From a virus (lineage: Duplodnaviria > Heunggongvirae > Uroviricota > Caudoviricetes): a stretch of DNA of 36,135 nucleotides. Made by a program: the position numbers and the translations under genes. Positions 1,440-35,404 of the stretch are shown here, in pieces (the stretch's first letter is position 1; the number at the start of each line of letters is the position of its first letter). The stretch is taken from IMG/VR virus record IMGVR_UViG_2563366968_000009, one strand, 5' to 3'. The notes under the pieces were generated by a model. It did not search any database. It worked only from the letters and a program-made list of their open reading frames with translations, and was not told where the DNA came from.

Positions 1440-1446
1440 CTGTTTC

Positions 1447-1533
1447 GCTGAAAAACATAACCCATAAAATGCTAGCTGTACCAGGAACCACCTCCTTAGC
1501 CTGTGTAATCTCCCTTACACGGGCTTATTTTTT
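1447..1533 (+). ncRNA. cyaR: Hfq-dependent small RNA CyaR (RyeE), about 87 nt; 3' terminator overlaps the prophage att core
   Basis: Sequence GCTGAAAAACATAACCCATAAAATGCTAGCTGTACCAGGAACCACCTCCTTAGCCTGTGTAATCTCCCTTACACGGGCTTATTTTTT matches my recollection of E. coli CyaR. It contains a C-rich anti-SD-like CCACCTCCTTA element and ends in a hairpin (CCTGTGTAA/TTACACGGG) followed by a T-run ending at 1533. Location between yegQ and ogr matches the E. coli cyaR position. Confidence 0.7.
1507..1533. other. attL: attL core, 27 bp AATCTCCCTTACACGGGCTTATTTTTT (reverse complement of the P2 att core as recalled)
   Basis: Identical 27-mer recurs at 33591..33617 (attR). Between the two copies lies a complete P2-like gene set with int adjacent to the right copy and ogr adjacent to the left copy. 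Confidence 0.85.
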
Positions 1534-1596
1534 ACGCGTAATACAATGAAATAAAAGGATTTATTTCTGGTCACGTCCACACATTGACCACATCGA

Positions 1597-1622
1597 CAAA
1601 AAAGCCCCTCGACTGAGGGGCT
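1597..1622 (-). terminator. Rho-independent terminator downstream of ogr
   Basis: Perfect inverted repeat GCCCCTC-GACT-GAGGGGC (1604..1621), preceded on the plus strand by AAAAAA (a U-run after the hairpin on the minus strand), 13 bp past the ogr stop codon. Confidence 0.6.
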
Positions 1623-1634
1623 TTCTGTTTGTAA

Positions 1635-1853
1635 TTACATCCACATAATTTGCTGCCCTGACGGCAACGGGTGCGGCCTTACGGCGTGGACTTCTCCCGG
1701 CTTCACGATGTATCGCTGTACCGACTCATAAGTGATGAACGTGGCGCTGCAATTCACGTTCTGACACTGGTGATAACGCTCTTTTGTCGTGTCAGTGATA
1801 TAGCGGCTTGTACGCGCATGTGCGGCATGCTGGCATAAAGGACAATGAAACAT
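1635..1853 (-). CDS. ogr: Ogr, zinc-finger late-gene transcription activator (72 aa)
   Basis: Protein MFHCPLCQHAAHARTSRYITDTTKERYHQCQNVNCSATFITYESVQRYIV... matches P2 Ogr from memory, with a C4 zinc finger. Start placed at the internal ATG preceded by GAGG 8-9 nt upstream rather than the longer track ORF (1635..1916). Confidence 0.85.
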   Translation of the reverse strand: MFHCPLCQHAAHARTSRYITDTTKERYHQCQNVNCSATFITYESVQRYIVKPGEVHAVRPHPLPSGQQIMWM

Positions 1854-1934
1854 CGCGAGCACCTCTTCCGGTTTTGTTGATGGTGCCATTTTAGTTAATT
1901 TATCCTTATAAAACAAACAGATAAAATAAAAACA

Positions 1935-3098
1935 TCACTCATCATCTTCTGTTTCGTACTCCACATCAGAAAGCCTAACCTCAAGCTCTAAGGACGTCGT
2001 GAAGCCGCTATTATTCAGAAAATGTGTCACCTTAGTGATTGTCCAGTCCTGCTCGTCTATGACGCGCTTAAAGCCTGACACTTTGACCGGCGTTTCCGTG
2101 TAAATATCTGCCCGACCAGTAGCCAGACTGATGGAGAACTCCGCAACGCCCCGTTGCAGCTTATCCCACTTTGCCTGAGCGGCGCGCATGGCCTGCGCTT
2201 TTGTGGCATATACCGTAGTCAGGGCAAAAACGTTGTCAGCTTCACCGGCCATGTATTCACCTTCGCGCGCTTCCGGTACTTTTGGCGCTTTCTTCTGCGT
2301 GACCGGTTTCGCTTTGGGGTGCTCCAGTGCGCGCAGGTGTTTCTCTTTCTTTTTGCGTTTCAGTTTTACCTTCTGCTTTTGCGGCTTCGGGTCTTTGGTG
2401 TGTAACCACTTTGCCGTTACGCCGGTGTAAGCTCCACGGTCAGCAATCGCAAAATGATGACGGTCGCCGTCGCTGCGGGTGATGGTAATCTGCGGGATTT
2501 TTTTACCGCTGGCCGTCACCCCCTGCCCCGCTTTGAGAAACAGCAGTTTTCCCATTTTTACCGACACCTCACCGCCGTTGCGTTCAGCAAGGCGGGTCAG
2601 GAATTTCGCATCAGACTCCTGCGACTGGTCGATGTGCGGAATTTTAATTCCGGCCAGTGACGGAGCGACACTGGCTTCCAGCCTGTTACGGGAGGCTATC
2701 GCCTCAACAATCGCGCCGAGCGTGGTGTCATGCCAGGAGCCTTCCCGGCGGGAATTAAGCGTCCCGCGGAAATCTGCACTCCGGGCGCGGATGGTAACCA
2801 CATCCGGCGCGCCCCGGTGTTCAACCTCATCAACGGTAAATTTCCCTTTGCATACCAGGGCAAAACCTTTCCAGCCGATATACACCGTCAGGACAGCGCC
2901 ACGAATCGGTAGCCCGACCTGCCCGTCGGCGTCGTTCAGTTCAATATCAAGCTGGTCAGCCTCAAAGCCCCGGTTATCCGTCAGGGTCATGCTCATCAGA
3001 CGGTCGCTGATATTGCCGGTAATATCCCTGCTGTCGAGCATCAGCATGTAATCCGGCGTCAGCGTACTGCCTGCATCAAATGTCAGCGCATCCAGCAT
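1935..3098 (-). CDS. D: Tail protein gpD (387 aa)
   Basis: Length and position (between ogr and U) match P2 gpD; overlaps the U stop codon by 1 nt. Confidence 0.85.
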   Translation of the reverse strand: MLDALTFDAGSTLTPDYMLMLDSRDITGNISDRLMSMTLTDNRGFEADQLDIELNDADGQVGLPIRGAVLTVYIGWKGFALVCKGKFTVDEVEHRGAPDVVTIRARSADFRGTLNSRREGSWHDTTLGAIVEAIASRNRLEASVAPSLAGIKIPHIDQSQESDAKFLTRLAERNGGEVSVKMGKLLFLKAGQGVTASGKKIPQITITRSDGDRHHFAIADRGAYTGVTAKWLHTKDPKPQKQKVKLKRKKKEKHLRALEHPKAKPVTQKKAPKVPEAREGEYMAGEADNVFALTTVYATKAQAMRAAQAKWDKLQRGVAEFSISLATGRADIYTETPVKVSGFKRVIDEQDWTITKVTHFLNNSGFTTSLELEVRLSDVEYETEDDE

Positions 3099-3577
3099 TA
3101 TCCCGCCTCCGTCATACCCGTGAATTTAGTCGCTATACTGCCAGCCTTACCGATGAGCGATTCCGCCTGTTTACCGATATCGCCATAAAGCGCGGCCAGT
3201 GATTCATCAACGCGGGTGAGCGACAGCGTAAAATCAATTTTCCGGGGTGTGCCGTCTGCAAAGAAAATACTCCCTGTTTCACTCACCTTGCTGATGACAT
3301 ACATACCGTAAATCATGCCGGTGCCATCCAGCAACGGCCACGCCCGGCCTTCCTCTGCCATCAGTCTGAGCGTGGTCATCGTCAGCTTGCCGCCGGTCAG
3401 TTCGGGATAAAGCACACCGGCAAGCGTCATGTTTTCCTCACCCACACCTAGAAACTGGTAGGCATCCCGTTTACCGATACGGGAATTTGACGGCCAGCGA
3501 TAATCTGATTCACGCTGCATGGTCTGGTGTGGCAGCGTCTGGCGCATAAAAACAAACATCCCTAACGCGAGCATCAT
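3098..3577 (-). CDS. U: Tail protein gpU (159 aa)
   Basis: Length and synteny match P2 gpU. Confidence 0.85.
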   Translation of the reverse strand: MMLALGMFVFMRQTLPHQTMQRESDYRWPSNSRIGKRDAYQFLGVGEENMTLAGVLYPELTGGKLTMTTLRLMAEEGRAWPLLDGTGMIYGMYVISKVSETGSIFFADGTPRKIDFTLSLTRVDESLAALYGDIGKQAESLIGKAGSIATKFTGMTEAG

Positions 3578-3591
3578 TTTTCATCACCTCC

Positions 3592-6039
3592 TTAACCGTC
3601 ATGCATCATGCTGGCACGGGCGCGCGCACGTTTATCCCGCTCGTATTTTTCGAGCGCATCCTGTAACTGGCGGTCAAGCTGTGTCCCCGGCGCAGTACCA
3701 CCCGTCAGGCTGATGTGATATTCGTTTTTACTCTGGTCCACATAAGAGCGGCCAGCCGGTGCCGTAACCGGCTGATAAGCCTGATAACCTGCATAAGAGC
3801 TGGTCGCCGGAATATAACCACCGGTGCCATACGTGGCGGCATGAGTTCTGGCGGCTGTCTGGTCAAGTGTGTCTGACTCTTTGTTGATGAACCCGAGCTT
3901 TTCCAGTACCCAGTCAATGCCGCTGCGTAATTTGTTGAACGCATTAAGCGGCAGCATCAGCGCGTCAGCCAGTGCCTGCCCGAACATGACGCCCGTGTCA
4001 CGGCAACGGTTCAGGGTGTCCTGGGTGGCTTTGACCGGGGCAATCAGGTTTTTAAACCACTGCCACGCAGCCTGTAACTTTTCACCCAGCCAGTCAAACA
4101 CCGGCTTAAGTGGCGTGAACAGTTCTCCCACCGGCGCAAATGCCGCTTTCAGCCCTTCCACCACACCGCCAAAGAATGCGCTGACAGGCTCCCAGTATTT
4201 ACGGATAAGTAACGCTCCGGCGACAATGGCGGCCACCACGGCCACTACCGGCCAGCTAATCGCCCCGATGGCCGTCATAACGGCACTGCCAACCGTCGTG
4301 AAAATTGCCCCCATTGCGCCTGCTGCAGCAATGATGGCATTGATGCCGGTGATAACCGGCCAGGCTACAAGACCAATGGCACCGATGATGCCAGTAAGCG
4401 CCAGTGCGCCACCGGCAATGAGGCCGATGGTTGACGCCAGTGATTTGTTTTTCTGGATCCAGCCGTCGAGTTTTAACACATACTTTGTGGCCGTCTGCGT
4501 GAGCTTACGCAGTGCGCCTTCCTGCTGGTCAAACAGGTCAGTCCCCACCGCCTCATAAGCGGACTGAAACTCTTTAAAGTCACCGCCGAGGTTGTCCTGC
4601 ATGATATTTACCAGCTCGGCGGTCTTCCCGTCTGAGGCTTTAAACGCAGCGGTCAGTTTGTCCAGCTTTCCGGTTGAGGCGGCAGTCATCAGCACGGCGG
4701 CGGCTGAGCTGGCCTCCTCCCCGAAAATAGTTTTCATGTATTCAGCCTGCTGGGCAGTACCGAGCCGGTTTTTCTCAAAACTGGCCTGCATTTCTTTCAG
4801 AATGGTAAATATTGGCCGGGTGTTTCCCTTGCTGTCTGAGGTTTTCACTCCAAGCTCTTTGAGTGCATCCCATGCTTTTCCCGTCGGTGCCTGCAGGCGG
4901 CTTAACACGGCACGGCTTCCCGTCCCCGCCATTGAGCCTGTGATTTTTGCATCATGCAGCGCCCCGACCATTGCGGCGGTTTCTTCAATGCTGACACCGG
5001 CATTTTTTGCCACAGGTGCGGCATAGGTCAGCGCATCGCTCATGCCGTCAAAATCGGCGGCGGTTTTGTTCATCGTCATGGAGAGAACATCCCCGATATG
5101 AGCGACCTTATCGTTTGAAAGCTGAAAGGCGGATTTCATCCCCATCAGCAGGGCGGCGTTTTCTTCCATCGTGCGGCGGTTCGCCAGCGCCATATTCAGC
5201 GTGACCGGCGTTGCCGCCTGAATGGCATCAACATCCCCACCCGCTTTCGCGATGATTATCTGTGCACCGGCCGCATCATCCGCCGAGGCGGCGGTATTGT
5301 CGCCGAGCTGGCGCGCCTGTTTGCGTAGTGCGGTCATTTCGGCGGAGTCTTTTGCCACTCCGAGCACGGCCTGCAATTCTGAGTTTTTCTGCGCAAACTC
5401 ATAACCGGGCATCAGCAACTTAACTCCGGCCATCGTTCCCGCCGCCGCAATCCCCACACCGGCAGCGCCCACTGAGGCCATATTTCCGGCCAGTTCCTTT
5501 CCGGCCTGATAACGCTGTTTTACTGCATTAAGTTTTGCCTGTTGCGCACTGACACGCGCCAGCGCGTCACGCTGCCGGTTAAGCTGTGCGGTGGTTTCAC
5601 TGATACGGTTTTTCAGTCCCTGCTCATCATGTGCAAGATTGCGGGTATTAATTCCCACAGCGGCCAGTTCCCGCTGCTGGCGCTTAACGGAATCCGTCAG
5701 GCGGTTATATTTCGCCTGTAAGTCCTCCGCCGCACGCTTTGCGGATTCCAGCACTTTCGCCTGAGCACGGGTCGGACGTTCAGTGTTTTTAAACTGTGTG
5801 GCAAGTGCTTCGGCTTCCTGCCGTGCCTTTTCAAGTGCATGACCAGTCACGGCAAGCTGTGCGCTGGTCTTGCGAAATCCCTCAATACGGGATGCGTGAC
5901 CGTTCAGCTCGCGCAGTGATTTTTGTGTTTCCCGGATATCCCCCGACAGCGACTTACTCGCTGTGCGGATGGATTTAAACGGGCGGGATGCCTGGTCAAC
6001 AGCCCTGAGCAATACCTGTAATTTTACATTGTTACTCAT
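3592..6039 (-). CDS. T: Tail tape measure protein gpT (815 aa)
   Basis: Long Ala/Gly-rich, coiled-coil-rich protein with a hydrophobic central segment; 815 aa as in P2 gpT; follows E/E'. Confidence 0.9.
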   Translation of the reverse strand: MSNNVKLQVLLRAVDQASRPFKSIRTASKSLSGDIRETQKSLRELNGHASRIEGFRKTSAQLAVTGHALEKARQEAEALATQFKNTERPTRAQAKVLESAKRAAEDLQAKYNRLTDSVKRQQRELAAVGINTRNLAHDEQGLKNRISETTAQLNRQRDALARVSAQQAKLNAVKQRYQAGKELAGNMASVGAAGVGIAAAGTMAGVKLLMPGYEFAQKNSELQAVLGVAKDSAEMTALRKQARQLGDNTAASADDAAGAQIIIAKAGGDVDAIQAATPVTLNMALANRRTMEENAALLMGMKSAFQLSNDKVAHIGDVLSMTMNKTAADFDGMSDALTYAAPVAKNAGVSIEETAAMVGALHDAKITGSMAGTGSRAVLSRLQAPTGKAWDALKELGVKTSDSKGNTRPIFTILKEMQASFEKNRLGTAQQAEYMKTIFGEEASSAAAVLMTAASTGKLDKLTAAFKASDGKTAELVNIMQDNLGGDFKEFQSAYEAVGTDLFDQQEGALRKLTQTATKYVLKLDGWIQKNKSLASTIGLIAGGALALTGIIGAIGLVAWPVITGINAIIAAAGAMGAIFTTVGSAVMTAIGAISWPVVAVVAAIVAGALLIRKYWEPVSAFFGGVVEGLKAAFAPVGELFTPLKPVFDWLGEKLQAAWQWFKNLIAPVKATQDTLNRCRDTGVMFGQALADALMLPLNAFNKLRSGIDWVLEKLGFINKESDTLDQTAARTHAATYGTGGYIPATSSYAGYQAYQPVTAPAGRSYVDQSKNEYHISLTGGTAPGTQLDRQLQDALEKYERDKRARARASMMHDG

Positions 6040-22561: not shown

Positions 22562-24334
22562 ATGACCATCACCACAGACACCACTCTTTTACACGACCCG
22601 CGTCGTCAGGCGGCGCTGCTGTACTGGCAGGGGTTTTCCGTGCCGCAGATTGCCGCCATGTTGCAGATGAAACGCCCGACGGTGCAGAGCTGGAAACAGC
22701 GCGACGGCTGGGACAGCGTTGCCCCCATCAGCCGTGTCGAAATGAGTCTGGAAGCGCGGCTGACCCAGCTCATCATCAAACCGCAGAAAACCGGCGGTGA
22801 CTTCAAGGAAATTGACCTGCTGGGACGCCAGATTGAACGACTGGCACGGGTAAACCGCTACAGCCAGACCGGCAACGAGGCAGACCTTAATCCGAACGTC
22901 GCTAACCGCAACAAAGGCGGGCGTCGCAAACCGAAAAAGAATTTTTTCAGTGACGAGGCTATCGAAAAGCTGGAGCAGATTTTCTTTGAGCAGTCTTTCG
23001 ACTATCAGTTGCACTGGTATCGCGCCGGGCTTGAGCACCGCATCCGCGATATCCTGAAATCCCGCCAGATTGGCGCAACGTTTTATTTCTCCCGCGAGGC
23101 GCTGCTGCGTGCCCTGAAAACCGGTCATAACCAGATTTTTCTGTCGGCCAGTAAAACGCAGGCGTATGTGTTCCGTGAATACATCATCGCCTTTGCCCGT
23201 CTGGTTGACGTTGACCTGACCGGTGACCCGATTGTCCTGGGCAATAACGGCGCAAAACTGATTTTTCTCGGCACCAACTCCAACACCGCACAGAGCCATA
23301 ACGGCGACCTGTACGTCGACGAGATTTTCTGGATCCCGAATTTTCAGGTGCTGCGTAAGGTGGCATCTGGTATGGCCTCACAGAGTCACCTGCGCTCGAC
23401 CTATTTCTCCACCCCGTCCACGCTGGCGCACGACGCCTACCCGTTCTGGTCGGGTGAACTGTTTAACCGGGGACGCGCCAGCGCCGCTGAACGCGTGGAA
23501 ATCGACGTCAGTCATAACGCCCTTGCCGGTGGGCTTCTCTGTGCGGACGGCCAGTGGCGGCAGATTGTCACCATTGAGGACGCCCTGAAAGGCGGCTGCA
23601 CGCTCTTCGACATTGAGCAGCTTAAACGCGAAAACAGCGCCGACGATTTTAAAAACCTGTTCATGTGTGAATTTGTTGACGACAAGGCGTCGGTGTTCCC
23701 GTTCGAGGAGCTGCAACGCTGCATGGTCGACACGCTGGAAGAATGGGAAGACTATGCGCCGTTTGCCGCCAATCCGTTCGGCTCCCGCCCGGTATGGATT
23801 GGTTACGACCCGTCACACCGTGGCGACAGCGCCGGATGCGTGGTGCTGGCACCGCCGGTGGTGGCCGGAGGTAAATTCAGAATACTTGAGCGTCACCAGT
23901 GGAAAGGCATGGACTTTGCCACCCAGGCTGAATCCATCCGCAAACTCACCGAAAAATATAACGTCGAATACATCGGTATTGATGCCACCGGCCTCGGTGT
24001 CGGCGTGTTCCAGCTCGTGCGCTCGTTCTATCCTGCCGCGCGCGATATCCGCTACACGCCGGAAATGAAAACCGCAATGGTGCTCAAGGCAAAAGACGTT
24101 ATCCGCCGTGGCTGTCTGGAATATGACGTCAGCGCCACCGACATCACCAGCTCGTTCATGGCTATCCGCAAGACCATGACCAGCAGCGGACGCAGCGCCA
24201 CCTATGAGGCCAGCCGCAGCGAGGAAGCCAGCCACGCCGACCTCGCCTGGGCAACCATGCACGCCCTGTTAAATGAGCCACTCACCGCCGGTATCAGCAC
24301 CCCGCTGACATCCACCATTCTGGAGTTTTACTGA
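22562..24334 (+). CDS. P: Terminase large (ATPase) subunit gpP (about 590 aa)
   Basis: Divergently transcribed from O as in P2; start placed at MTITTDTTLLHDPRRQ... (the track ORF begins 10 codons upstream). TGATG overlap with Q. Confidence 0.8.
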   Translation: MTITTDTTLLHDPRRQAALLYWQGFSVPQIAAMLQMKRPTVQSWKQRDGWDSVAPISRVEMSLEARLTQLIIKPQKTGGDFKEIDLLGRQIERLARVNRYSQTGNEADLNPNVANRNKGGRRKPKKNFFSDEAIEKLEQIFFEQSFDYQLHWYRAGLEHRIRDILKSRQIGATFYFSREALLRALKTGHNQIFLSASKTQAYVFREYIIAFARLVDVDLTGDPIVLGNNGAKLIFLGTNSNTAQSHNGDLYVDEIFWIPNFQVLRKVASGMASQSHLRSTYFSTPSTLAHDAYPFWSGELFNRGRASAAERVEIDVSHNALAGGLLCADGQWRQIVTIEDALKGGCTLFDIEQLKRENSADDFKNLFMCEFVDDKASVFPFEELQRCMVDTLEEWEDYAPFAANPFGSRPVWIGYDPSHRGDSAGCVVLAPPVVAGGKFRILERHQWKGMDFATQAESIRKLTEKYNVEYIGIDATGLGVGVFQLVRSFYPAARDIRYTPEMKTAMVLKAKDVIRRGCLEYDVSATDITSSFMAIRKTMTSSGRSATYEASRSEEASHADLAWATMHALLNEPLTAGISTPLTSTILEFY

Positions 24335-25368
24335 TGAGTAAGAAAAAAGGGAAAACACCGCAGCCAGCGGTGAAAACAATGACCGCCAGCGCCCCGAAAA
24401 TGGAGGCATTCACCTTTGGTGAGCCGGTGCCGGTACTCGACCGCCGTGACATTCTGGATTACGTCGAGTGCATCAGTAACGGCAGATGGTATGAGCCACC
24501 GGTCAGCTTTACCGGTCTGGCAAAAAGCCTGCGTGCCGCCGTGCATCACAGCTCACCGATTTACGTCAAACGTAATATTCTGGCTTCAACGTTTATCCCG
24601 CATCCGTGGCTTTCCCAGCAGGATTTCAGCCGCTTTGTGCTGGATTTTCTGGTGTTCGGTAATGCGTTTCTGGAAAAGCGTTACAGCACCACCGGTAAGG
24701 TCATCAGACTGGAAACCTCACCGGCAAAATATACCCGCCGTGGTGTGGAAGAAGATATTTACTGGTGGGTGCCATCCTTCCATGAGCCGACACCTTTCGC
24801 GCCCGGCTCCGTGTTTCACCTGCTGGAGCCGGATATTAATCAGGAGCTGTACGGTCTGCCGGAATATCTCAGCGCCCTTAACTCTGCCTGGCTGAATGAA
24901 TCAGCCACGCTGTTCCGCCGCAAGTATTACGAAAATGGCGCTCATGCCGGATACATCATGTACGTCACCGATGCCGTGCAGGATCGCAACGATATCGAAA
25001 TGCTCCGCGAAAACATGGTGAAGTCGAAAGGCCGCAACAACTTTAAAAACCTGTTTCTCTATGCCCCGCAGGGGAAAGCTGACGGCATCAAAATTATCCC
25101 GCTCAGTGAAGTGGCGACAAAGGACGATTTTTTTAATATCAAAAAATCCAGCGCCGCTGACCTGCTGGACGCGCACCGCATCCCCTTTCAGTTGATGGGC
25201 GGCAAGCCGGAGAACGTCGGGTCGCTGGGCGATATTGAGAAAGTGGCAAAGGTCTTTGTCCGCAATGAGCTTATCCCGTTACAGGACAGGATTCGGGAAA
25301 TAAACGGCTGGCTCGGTCAGGAGGTCATCCGCTTTAAAAACTACTCACTGGACACTGACAACGGCTGA
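24334..25368 (+). CDS. Q: Portal protein gpQ (344 aa)
   Basis: Length and synteny match P2 Q. Confidence 0.9.
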   Translation: MSKKKGKTPQPAVKTMTASAPKMEAFTFGEPVPVLDRRDILDYVECISNGRWYEPPVSFTGLAKSLRAAVHHSSPIYVKRNILASTFIPHPWLSQQDFSRFVLDFLVFGNAFLEKRYSTTGKVIRLETSPAKYTRRGVEEDIYWWVPSFHEPTPFAPGSVFHLLEPDINQELYGLPEYLSALNSAWLNESATLFRRKYYENGAHAGYIMYVTDAVQDRNDIEMLRENMVKSKGRNNFKNLFLYAPQGKADGIKIIPLSEVATKDDFFNIKKSSAADLLDAHRIPFQLMGGKPENVGSLGDIEKVAKVFVRNELIPLQDRIREINGWLGQEVIRFKNYSLDTDNG

Positions 25369-32497: not shown

Positions 32498-33511
32498 ATG
32501 GCAATCAAAAAACTCGATGATGGTCGATATGAAGTGGACATCCGCCCTACTGGACGTAATGGAAAACGCATCCGTAGGAAGTTTGATAAGAAAAGCGAAG
32601 CTGTCGCTTTCGAGAAATACACGTTGTACAACCACCACAATAAAGAATGGCTATCAAAACCAACAGACAAACGACGTCTGTCGGAACTGACACAGATCTG
32701 GTGGGATTTAAAGGGTAAACACGAAGAGCATGGGAAATCTAATCTTGGAAAAATTGAAATCTTCACAAAAATAACGAATGACCCATGCGCATTTCAAATC
32801 ACGAAATCCCTTATCAGCCAGTACTGCGCCACCCGAAGAAGTCAGGGTATTAAACCTTCGAGTATCAATCGTGATTTAACATGTATTAGCGGCATGTTTA
32901 CAGCCCTGATTGAAGCGGAGTTATTCTTTGGTGAGCACCCTATCAGAGGGACAAAGAGGCTTAAGGAGGAAAAACCAGAAACAGGCTATCTCACACAGGA
33001 AGAAATTGCCTTACTGCTTGCAGCACTTGACGGCGACAATAAAAAGATTGCGATTCTTTGCCTGAGTACAGGAGCACGTTGGGGAGAAGCAGCTCGTTTG
33101 AAAGCAGAAAATATCATCCATAACCGCGTCACGTTTGTTAAAACGAAAACAAACAAACCACGCACCGTCCCGATCTCAGAGGCTGTTGCCAAAATGATCG
33201 CGGATAACAAACGAGGTTTTTTATTCCCTGATGCTGATTACCCTCGCTTCAGACGAACAATGAAAGCAATAAAACCGGATTTGCCAATGGGGCAAGCCAC
33301 ACATGCACTAAGGCACAGCTTTGCCACTCATTTCATGATTAATGGAGGAAGTATTATTACGCTACAACGGATACTAGGTCACACGCGGATTGAGCAAACG
33401 ATGGTTTACGCTCATTTTGCGCCAGAGTACCTTCAGGACGCCATTTCTCTTAATCCGCTAAGAGGTGGTACTGAGGCCGAGAGTGTCCACACAGTGTCCA
33501 CAGTAGAGTAA
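32498..33511 (+). CDS. int: Tyrosine integrase (337 aa)
   Basis: Length and position next to attR match P2 Int; C-terminal R...HxxR...Y-type catalytic region (ATHALRHSFATH...MVYAHF); GGAGGG Shine-Dalgarno. Confidence 0.9.
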   Translation: MAIKKLDDGRYEVDIRPTGRNGKRIRRKFDKKSEAVAFEKYTLYNHHNKEWLSKPTDKRRLSELTQIWWDLKGKHEEHGKSNLGKIEIFTKITNDPCAFQITKSLISQYCATRRSQGIKPSSINRDLTCISGMFTALIEAELFFGEHPIRGTKRLKEEKPETGYLTQEEIALLLAALDGDNKKIAILCLSTGARWGEAARLKAENIIHNRVTFVKTKTNKPRTVPISEAVAKMIADNKRGFLFPDADYPRFRRTMKAIKPDLPMGQATHALRHSFATHFMINGGSIITLQRILGHTRIEQTMVYAHFAPEYLQDAISLNPLRGGTEAESVHTVSTVE

Positions 33512-33590: not shown

Positions 33591-33617
33591 AATCTCCCTT
33601 ACACGGGCTTATTTTTT
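33591..33617. other. attR: attR core, 27 bp identical to attL
   Basis: Exact repeat of 1507..1533, 80 bp downstream of int. Confidence 0.85.
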
Positions 33618-33787
33618 GTGCATAAACCATAGAGACGGATTGATCCCAGGTGACCGTCTTCCATTGACCACATCGATAGAATCTCCCTTCATAGCACGAT
33701 GCCTTTCACGTAACGGCATCGTGCTCGCACAGGTTCCGGCTAAGCACAACCAGAACGCGCATGTTTGACGCTTACCAAAAAATATTC

Positions 33788-34105
33788 TCACTCTCCACAT
33801 TTGAATGTCAGACGAGCGACGCCATGTAATCCTGCACCTTCTGTCTTCAGGTCAACTATCTGCATTTTTTTGCCCTGAGTAACACAGAAATGAGCTGCAT
33901 CATTTTTTACTATATTTTCTGCACCAGATATTCTGCCCCTGGCTAAAGAAGCTTCGGCTTCGGTGTAGTATTGGTTATCGAGTTTACGCTGAATATTACT
34001 TTTATATGCAAGACCAAATTTACCGATACTTGTCTCATCATTATGTACAGCACACCCAGACATAAGAAAAACACTAATTAATGATATAGCAGCTATCTTT
34101 TTCAT
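33788..34105 (-). CDS. yegR: Lipoprotein YegR (105 aa)
   Basis: MKKIAAISLISVFLMSGC... has a signal peptide and lipobox. Start placed at the internal ATG (105 aa) rather than the extended track ORF. Synteny with yegS as in E. coli. Confidence 0.75.
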   Translation of the reverse strand: MKKIAAISLISVFLMSGCAVHNDETSIGKFGLAYKSNIQRKLDNQYYTEAEASLARGRISGAENIVKNDAAHFCVTQGKKMQIVDLKTEGAGLHGVARLTFKCGE

Positions 34106-34519
34106 CTTACCTTCCCCCATTAAATACCAACGACACGCTCTGGTGTTAAAATATAATAATGGCATGATTATTATAATTGAATAGGATTATAATAAATGTT
34201 CTGTACAACATTTCCTACATAAGTAGGAATTACAAACATGAAGCCCTGCCCAGGTATCCCCATGAGGGCTTTAATATATTTAGAATAAGATAGTGAAGAT
34301 GCCACTGTTTAGTTGAATATTAGGTATATGCTCTTTTTTGAAATTTACCGGTGGCTACCGTTAACATTCACTGTCCCCATTGCAAGCTCCTGGTGGTAAC
34401 CACTGAATCCTCCATACTTGAACTGATTTTTTATCCTCCGACTTTCATCCTGTTCTGACTCCACCTTTTCTTTTCTGCTCTACACTATCTACAGACCAAT
34501 CATAAAGGCACATACGATC

Positions 34520-35404
34520 ATGGCAGAATTTCCCGCCAGCTTACTGATTCTTAATGGCAAAAGTACTGACAATTTACCATTGCGCGAAGCAATTATGCTG
34601 TTGCGTGAGGAAGGAATGACGATCCATGTGCGGGTCACCTGGGAGAAAGGCGATGCCGCACGATATGTAGAGGAGGCCCGGAAGTTGGGCGTCGCAACGG
34701 TGATTGCCGGTGGTGGCGATGGCACCATTAATGAAGTTTCTACGGCGTTGATTCAGTGTGAGGGGGATGACATACCCGCGCTAGGAATTTTGCCATTAGG
34801 AACCGCCAATGATTTTGCCACCAGTGTAAGGATTCCTGAGGCACTGGATAAGGCGCTGAAACTGGCAATTGCCGGTGACGCCATTGCGATAGATATGGCG
34901 CAGGTCAACAAACAAACCTGTTTTATTAATATGGCGACAGGCGGATTTGGGACGCGTATTACCACAGAAACGCCGGAAAAATTAAAAGCCGCGCTGGGTG
35001 GCGTCTCTTACATCATTCATGGCTTAATGCGCATGGATACTCTGCAACCGGACCGTTGTGAGATCCGCGGTGAAAACTTTCACTGGCAAGGTGACGCCCT
35101 GGTCATTGGTATTGGTAACGGGCGTCAGGCCGGTGGCGGTCAGCAATTGTGCCCGAACGCGTTAATTAACGATGGCTTGCTGCAACTGCGCATTTTTACC
35201 GGCGATGAAATTCTTCCGGCTCTCGTATCAACATTAAAATCTGACGAAGATAACCCGAATATTATCGAAGGCGCTTCGTCGTGGTTTGATATACAAGCCC
35301 CACACGAAATCACTTTTAATCTTGATGGCGAACCGTTGAGCGGACAAAATTTTCATATTGAAATACTTCCGGCGGCGTTGCGGGTGATGCTGCCAACTTA
35401 CTGA
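34520..35404 (+). CDS. yegS: Lipid kinase YegS, C-terminally altered by IS1 insertion (294 aa ORF)
   Basis: [45 protein letters not shown]... matches E. coli YegS (DAGK-family GGDG motif). The reading frame runs into IS1 at 35383 and ends ...[13 protein letters not shown], where I recall the native protein continuing ...RCRLPPDCPLLR. Confidence 0.85.

Follow-up and report, generated by a model that had tools for sequence, protein, structure and literature searches.

Does the host DNA to the right of attR, next to a P2-like prophage integrated at cyaR, record an earlier integration at the same site, and how far does such a record extend? The question is raised by a stretch of 36,135 nucleotides (IMG/VR virus record IMGVR_UViG_2563366968_000009), referred to here in its full length as the window. 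In the window, the gene order is yegQ (1-1362), cyaR, a prophage of ~32 kb, yegR, and yegS (34520-35404) [Table 1]. The resident prophage is a Peduovirus of P2 type, with 96.6-97.1% identity over 1507-5000 to P2 and its close relatives and other Peduovirus. Its ogr gene adjoins attL, while int (32498-33511) adjoins attR. The integration target is the terminator of cyaR, which encodes the only RNA family detected in the Rfam scan and has already been noted as a phage target under the name ryeE/cyaR (PMC3603311). The 27-bp att core, AATCTCCCTTACACGGGCTTATTTTTT, is present in two exact copies in all, and the attL copy doubles as the cyaR 3′ end, where it constitutes the 3′ half of the CyaR terminator.

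The two phage arms can be read with the help of the P2 record (GenBank AF063097). The ogr-side arm beyond attL corresponds to the annotated IHF site (24324-24357) and the Int "P arm" (24293-24320), and the TGTCCACA repeats on the int side are the Int "P′ arm" in this record. The consensus for the P2 Int arm-type repeat is tgTGGaCa (PMC3448106).

In the original prediction, the flank to the right of attR was suggested to resemble the ogr-side arm, to carry a second, degenerate att core followed by a hairpin, and to represent the scar of a related phage that was lost. All sequence elements that it quoted are present at the positions given for them. As discussed below, the segment 33618-33679 is very probably the left end of a composite and decaying island of ~815 bp, and a fossil of an earlier P2-like integration into the cyaR terminator.

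Table 1. Features of the cyaR-yegS locus in the window.
Feature	Position	Strand	Basis or reading
cyaR (CyaR/RyeE small RNA)	1445..1530	+	Rfam RF00112, 100.7 bits, full length
attL core of current prophage, 27 bp	1507..1533	+	Exact repeat of 33591-33617; identical to annotated P2 attP core
ogr-side arm of current prophage, with IHF site and Int arm-type site (1569-1596)	1534..1598	+	P2 record features
Two direct TGTCCACA repeats, Int arm-type sites in the int-side arm of the prophage	33484..33502	+	Read from sequence
attR core of current prophage	33591..33617	+	Exact 27-bp repeat
Relic of P2-type ogr-side arm, long allele, 62 nt	33618..33679	+	Colinear with 1534-1598
10-mer AATCTCCCTT, identical to core positions 1-10	33680..33689	+	Partial core of an intermediate integration, or chance
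Perfect 10-bp-stem hairpin	33694..33724	.	Arms GCACGATGCC (33694-33703) and GGCATCGTGC (33715-33724)
Block common to L109 (37/43), where the older, shared part of the island has its left end	33725..33767	.	Alignment
yegR, orphan lipoprotein gene, 105 aa	33788..34105	-	Annotated in EDL933, K-12-like, and BL21
yegR upstream region, AT-rich, right part of the island, 300 nt	34106..34405	.	GC 0.31-0.38
Degenerate core AATCCTCCATACTTGAACTGATTTTTT, read as old attR and displaced original cyaR 3′ end	34406..34432	+	Alignment to outgroups
Ancestral cyaR-yegS spacer with yegS promoter region	34433..34519	+	Aligns to E1V33 and Enterobacter-group species

A probable phage arm next to attR

From the first base past the attR core, the chromosome is colinear with the ogr-side arm of the prophage and in the same orientation, with 45 of the 60 aligned pairs being identical (75% over the arm). 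The stretch GGTGACCGTCTTCCATTGACCACATCGATAG at 33649-33679 has its phage counterpart in GGTCACGTCCACACATTGACCACATCGAC at 1569-1597, and the 15-mer CATTGACCACATCGA is exact in both (33662-33676 and 1582-1596); the arm sequence of the relic reads GTGCATAAACCATAGAGACGGATTGATCCCAGGTGACCGTCTTCC. Local alignment of 33617-33790 with 1534-1640 gave a score of 33, which none of 1000 shuffled sequences reached (14.9 ± 2.1, maximum 26), and the anchored global alignment of the relic with the phage arm gave z = 8.2. The similarity is far above chance, and in this respect the original prediction was borne out. Its placement of the resemblance was not, as it had the similarity starting ~60 bp past attR.

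Moreover, a blastn search with 33591-33700 against 50,697 phage records returned the attP regions of P2 and other Peduovirus (E = 3e-8 to 1e-6). The match spans P2 24293-24382, covering the core, the IHF site, and the Int P-arm site, and its end is the exact end of the annotated Int site. Given the P2 annotation of the matched stretch (attP core, IHF, and Int P arm), phage 1569-1597 is therefore an Int arm-type binding site. Among the phage records searched, no extant phage arm is closer to the relic than the P2-type arms, and in a multiple alignment the relic fits the arm family of cyaR-integrated prophages in Citrobacter, Enterobacter, and other genera.

Parts of this arm have decayed to different extents. 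One arm-type repeat is intact, i.e., TGTGGTCA on the minus strand, which reads TGACCACA on the plus strand and is identical to the phage copy; TGACCACA begins 48 nt past the core end in the relic (33665-33672) and 52 nt past it in attL. The second repeat is degenerate (CCGTCTTC and GAAGACGG in the relic vs ACGTCCAC and TGTGGACG, respectively, in the phage). The IHF region of the relic aligns to that of the phage, with the A/T-rich tract largely replaced. On the basis of these sequence comparisons, the reading of 33618-33679 as the decayed ogr-side arm of an earlier P2-like phage is supported. This segment belongs neither to the current prophage nor to ordinary host DNA.

Could AT-biased intergenic DNA have produced the similarity by chance, or could the segment be plain host sequence with no relation to phages? 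Nearly all E. coli have the segment, irrespective of whether the site is occupied, as would be expected of host DNA, but it is missing from the ancestral cyaR-yegS arrangement (see below). A chance origin conflicts with the shuffle tests and the blastn E-values, as well as with the colinearity with annotated Int and IHF sites at a matching distance from the core. In addition, the GC content of the relic segment is 0.47-0.49, which is not AT-biased. Neither version of this explanation is credible to any real extent.

Conservation in E. coli and the question of function

The right flank is carried by 5,385 of 5,426 complete E. coli genomes (~99%), and an uninterrupted junction between cyaR, core, and relic was found in 4,575 genomes. 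At empty sites, e.g., in EDL933 and BL21(DE3), the relic directly follows cyaR. In 814 of the 5,426 genomes (15%), a P2-type int arm is joined to the core and the relic, so the att site is occupied in those genomes. In E. coli the relic is an old, fixed feature, and it is no recent scar of this strain.

Two alleles of the relic differ by a 12-nt indel. The long allele (62 nt), present in the window, was found in 149 genomes, at least 60 of which have empty sites, and the short allele (50 nt), which lacks 12 nt of the IHF region, is carried by most strains (~97%). The long allele keeps GGATTGAT, matching GGATTTAT in the phage arm, and the short allele is therefore a derived deletion.

A 27-nt block that includes the arm repeat (33653-33679) shows no variation among 15 diverse E. 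coli, in which the island averages 0.15 variable sites/nt (P = 0.012, post hoc). This feature raises the possibility that the relic has been kept because it is functional. The intact Int arm-type repeat, perhaps together with IHF binding, might influence site preference, integration efficiency, or excision. The 15-mer of the relic is identical to modern phage arms, and in the long allele the distance between arm repeat and core differs from that in the phage by no more than 4 nt. Against this scenario, the second arm repeat has become degenerate, the A/T-rich IHF region has largely been lost, and ~97% of the genomes carry the 12-nt deletion, which alters the spacing. Furthermore, conservation among the arms of the family is highest at the arm motif, so identity at this motif is expected without selection. 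Retention for function is very unlikely, as judged from the sequences compared, and the relic is most likely without present function.

A related suggestion is that the intact Int arm site makes the preferred P2 attB attL-like and the attR of a lysogen a pseudo-attP, which would bias the choice of integration site or excision. Such an effect, in which the remains of one phage would modulate site-specific recombination by the phages that come after it, appears decidedly improbable.

An att-bounded island between cyaR and yegS

The cyaR region of other Enterobacteriaceae provides the comparison that is needed to decide whether the E. coli interval is host DNA. A scan with a cyaR word, using one genome per species, returned at least 120 Enterobacteriaceae loci. 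In 64 of the 120 listed species loci, yegS starts ~75-150 nt past cyaR, and neither yegR nor arm-like sequence is found there. Loci with cyaR directly next to yegS come from Klebsiella, Enterobacter, Kosakonia, Citrobacter, Atlantibacter, Raoultella, Kluyvera, and Escherichia sp. E1V33. A P2-type arm past cyaR, with or without ogr, is present in 15 of the 120 listed loci, and other insertions past cyaR are present in 41. Since cyaR is directly adjacent to yegS in these 64 loci, this adjacency is ancestral, and the sequence between the two genes in E. coli was inserted. For the age of the insertion only a bracket can be given, as the outgroup sample (the 120 listed loci) is without E. fergusonii and the E. 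albertii locus is broken by an IS.

Conservation of the segment in strains that never carried a prophage at this site had been named in the original prediction as an observation that would count against a relic. The segment is indeed conserved, in the ~99% of E. coli given above and at the empty sites among them. The relic withstands this observation because the insert is derived relative to the outgroups.

Throughout the family, the 3′ end of cyaR serves as a hotspot for insertions. As separate observations, nine Enterobacter loci have a different cyaR-yegS insert of ~550 nt, starting GCCTTCTC…CAGGCAATAAG and placing yegS at ~+686, and species of the Citrobacter freundii group have yet another insert past cyaR.

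In the window, the insert spans 33618-34432 and comprises the arm relic, the 10-mer, the hairpin, a block shared with the locus L109, yegR with its AT-rich upstream DNA, and a degenerate core. L109 is a divergent Escherichia labelled E. coli, with yegS and yegQ being 87.5% and 92.5% identical, respectively, to those in the window. The GC content is 0.31-0.38 across 33900-34400 compared with 0.46-0.58 in the flanking yegS, an atypical composition that speaks for foreign DNA.

At the right border of the insert, the sequence 34406-34432 has 18/27 identity to the ancestral cyaR 3′ end, a figure that includes a T-run of 6-7 nt, and 19/27 identity to the P2 core. Values of at least 18/27 were obtained for 4 of the 72,216 27-mers of the window; two of these are the true cores and 34406-34432 is among the rest, which corresponds to a chance of ~2 in 72,216 per position. 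In an alignment with four insert-free species, 34406-34432 lies opposite their cyaR 3′ end, AATCTCCCTTACGCAGGCTTATTTTTT, and the similarity sets in precisely at core position 1 and is absent upstream of it. Homology between the E1V33 locus and the window resumes at ~34423 and continues through the yegS promoter into yegS. The counterpart of the spacer 34433-34519 directly follows cyaR in E1V33 and in Enterobacter-group species. At the same place, L109 has 20/27 identity and the ancestral-type GCAG (ACGCAGG) rather than the P2-type ACACGGG. The segment 34406-34432 is the displaced original cyaR 3′ end, so it is a real old attR, with element DNA to its left and the target fragment and host DNA to its right. 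Within E. coli, this old core varies at 9/27 sites.

The ancestral cyaR 3′ end is thus found ~0.8 kb downstream, and it follows that the terminator half now in E. coli CyaR (ACACGGGCT) is of phage type. The working 3′ end of E. coli CyaR therefore looks phage-donated, as far as the sequence comparison goes. The CyaR terminator (window 1496-1533) also differs among these bacteria. Its right half reads TTACACGGGCT, the P2-core type, in E. coli and TTACGCAGGCT in most Enterobacteriaceae, E1V33, and E. albertii (comparison covering L029, L062, and most other genera). The left stem, which is outside the core, reads CCTGTG in Escherichia and CCTGCG elsewhere. Since the left stem and the right half both differ, one stem pair has changed on both sides, from C-G to T-A. 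The E1V33 stem has the G.U intermediate of this change.

To the left of the old core, in 34250-34405, neither an int-side arm nor integrase remains were detected (score 16 vs 15.3 ± 2.2). Two small features were observed in this part of the island. At 34371-34378, TGTCCCCA matches the arm repeat TGTCCACA at 7/8 positions with a spacing unlike that of P2, and it was not used as evidence; the near-palindrome TGGTGGTAACCACT lies just left of the old core (34392-34405). Both may be last traces of an int-side arm, with mismatched spacing and an alignment that is not significant.

The interior of the island has little in common with known phages. Comparison with the current prophage by blastn and tblastx revealed no phage gene remnant and nothing beyond the arm. 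When yegR and the rest of the island were searched for in phages and plasmids, the only matches were ON470606 and AY639599, which contain the flank, and mislabelled chromosome pieces. As no phage gene remnant was found in the island, the P2-like origin rests on the 62-nt arm and the att cores. The records ON470606 (Escherichia phage vB_EcoM-720R8) and AY639599 ("Phage TP") include E. coli chromosomal flank, carrying either yegR and yegS with the gat repressor or yegQ, whose annotation reads putative protease, and this generates false phage matches.

The YegR protein carries the precomputed family label Pfam PF27694, and a Pfam scan of the copy in the window gave no significant family. Its 83 database clusters are all from Escherichia/Shigella apart from a few distant ones. 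One distant homologue resides in Enterobacter, in a region rich in IS elements, and another has an unrelated chromosomal context; neither is phage-linked. The gene yegR may have arrived via another element that used the same site.

Decay of the island can be followed among E. coli strains. In strain 81009, a ~170-nt AT-rich segment (positions ~500-670 of its locus) lies between the block shared with L109 and the yegR stop. A longer homologue is present in L109, and the segment is also found in other E. coli with two-piece flank matches. It appears to have been lost by deletion from the window and from most strains, with the gap site in the window between 33776 and 33785. In FDAARGOS_1077, the cyaR-yegS interval is ~300 nt shorter and yegR is unannotated, representing a natural deletion of most of yegR.

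The 10-mer, the hairpin, and the extent of the scar

The sequence that follows the relic arm is AATCTCCCTTCATAGC, and it includes the 10-mer that the original prediction regarded as a second att core. According to that model, the phage decayed in place and left a compact scar consisting of the arm 33618-33679 and the truncated core 33680-33689. The 10-mer would then be the attR core of an intermediate phage, and the DNA to its right would be the earlier neighbour of the core. The match is 10/10, on the same strand, and it starts with core position 1; for the other 17 nt, however, there is no similarity to the sequence after the 10-mer (p = 0.6). The chance probability of finding any core 10-mer on either strand is 0.004 in the 170-nt segment, but it is 0.025 over the island, and the observation is post hoc. 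Likewise, AATCTCCCTT is the majority allele among 17 E. coli sequences, yet the 10-mer is among the most variable spots, with 3/10 sites varying in 15 sequences (the variants being AATCCTCCTT in K-12 and BL21, AATCCCCCTT, and ATCCCCCTT), and it has no counterpart in L109.

Position and mechanism can be weighed in the same way. The 10-mer sits between the arm relic and older material, which is where layered integrations would put the core of a younger attR, and the K-12 remnant discussed below indicates that deletions ending inside the core do occur at this locus. The compact scar nevertheless requires two deletions, one of which has to end exactly at the core boundary. In addition, MAFFT places the 10-mer stretch on the left half of the ogr terminator stem (AAAAGCCCCTC), a loose alignment with p = 0.09. 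It is doubtful that the 10-mer is a true core remnant, and the compact scar as a whole is a rather unlikely account of the flank. Being 10 nt only, polymorphic, and ambiguous, the match falls short of the second att core that was proposed at this place. The relic is also larger than envisaged, including yegR and reaching the better second core 0.7 kb to the right of the 10-mer.

A further candidate, in which the 10-mer and the hairpin together represent a decayed ogr terminator and ogr stop region, was rejected; the anchored alignment gave the same p = 0.09 and local alignments were at the null level. The hairpin itself is as described in the original prediction, and it folds as an 11-bp stem when a flanking pair is included. 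It is positioned ~65 nt beyond the stop codon of yegR, which is read from the minus strand. A function as a rho-independent terminator was considered and discarded, as there is no T-run on either strand and a terminator scan finds no site. The same applies to a REP or MITE origin, since the region 33605-33700 is found at a median of one place per genome. The hairpin is absent from L109.

The broader claim, that the locus was previously occupied by an integrated element that has since decayed, stands on the arm homology, the absence from outgroups, and the old core. The fossil of an earlier P2-like integration, i.e., the composite island that begins with the arm relic, could have formed as follows. 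A P2-type integrase would have recombined attP with the cyaR terminator, whereupon the phage-borne copy of the core became the working cyaR 3′ end and the host copy stayed at attR, where it would have decayed. Deletions would then have removed nearly all phage genes, and each later phage would have re-integrated at the intact core. With each integration taking place at the intact core, the incoming phage would come to lie between cyaR and whatever is left of its predecessors. This arrangement accounts both for the contact between the present attR core and the old arm and for the finding that Escherichia lineages share the yegR part but differ in the core-proximal part. The order and number of these events are inferred, and yegR may have arrived either with a P2-like phage or with another element.

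Repeated use of the site and known systems

That the site is used repeatedly, as the original prediction had considered probable, is supported by the 15% of E. coli genomes in which it is occupied, by the ogrK-yegZ remnant of K-12, and by a different arm scar in L109. In K-12, the ogrK-yegZ remnant is located to the left of the relic, with which it is in direct contact through a truncated core of its own, CTACACGGGCTTATTTTTT. For the arm scar in L109, identity is 80% to the P2-type arm but only 64% to the E. coli relic, and the shared yegR part is ~86% identical. The alignment of the L109 arm with the phage (z = 10.4, a score for the arm and the part past it together) appears to extend across the ogr terminator as far as the stop region of ogr. 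The simplest reading is repeated integration at one intact core, followed by deletion that leaves a fresh arm stub.

Two observations in other strains are related to these scars. The divergent strain ECGI0523 (yegS 94.4% identical to that of the window) and a K-12-like strain (L002) both carry an ogrK-yegZ remnant, and its junction (…GAGAACTCTGCTACACGGGCTTATTTTTT) is identical in the two; the remnant is either old or was moved by recombination. In E. albertii NBRC 107761, cyaR is followed by a P2-type arm stub (88% identity with the P2-type arm across 50 nt), which is cut within the first arm repeat by an IS3-family element.

What do these findings mean for the locus? The "empty" preferred P2 site of E. 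coli is already scarred by at least one earlier P2-like integration. The working terminator of E. coli CyaR has a phage-type half (ACACGGG), and the ancestral, ACGCAGG-like half has decayed ~0.8 kb downstream. The orphan gene yegR lies inside an att-bounded insert, which bears on its origin. The relic also helps to annotate prophage borders at cyaR, where two GenBank "phage" records include this host flank, and to date traffic at an integration hotspot in an sRNA gene. In the literature searched (work other than the primary P2 attB-site papers), the arm relic, the displaced cyaR 3′ end before yegS, and the att-bounded insert with yegR were not described. The feature as such is an ordinary kind of prophage relic, and it involves no new mechanism.

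The closest known system is the ogr-side arm of P2 itself (AF063097). The relic and this arm have the same order of elements, nearly the same spacing from the core, and an identical 27-bp core, and the TGTGGTCA repeat is identical together with 15 surrounding nt. Unlike the P2 arm, the relic has a degenerate second repeat and IHF region, it is not followed by the ogr terminator and gene, and it resides in chromosomes free of the prophage.

A second comparison is offered by ogrK-yegZ of E. coli K-12, which has been reported as a cryptic P2 remnant at the preferred P2 site. Like the element that left the relic, it is a decayed P2-like element at the cyaR core, and it was truncated by a deletion ending inside a core copy. 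The K-12 remnant differs in being nearly identical to P2 and in keeping ogr, part of D, and the right-hand 17-18 nt of the attR core. The relic, in contrast, is the older of the two and has decayed much further; it contains no phage gene, and essentially all E. coli have it, K-12 among them.

Finally, successive integrations into tRNA and tmRNA genes leave arrays of displaced 3′ gene fragments. As in those arrays, the integrase at cyaR acts on the 3′ end of an RNA gene, which receives a substitute end from the element, and the original fragment decays downstream. New elements insert proximal to the gene, which results in nested relics. In contrast to the tRNA and tmRNA arrays, the target at this locus is the terminator of an Hfq-dependent sRNA and not a tRNA-like gene, and the array is minimal, consisting of one good displaced fragment and one doubtful 10-mer.
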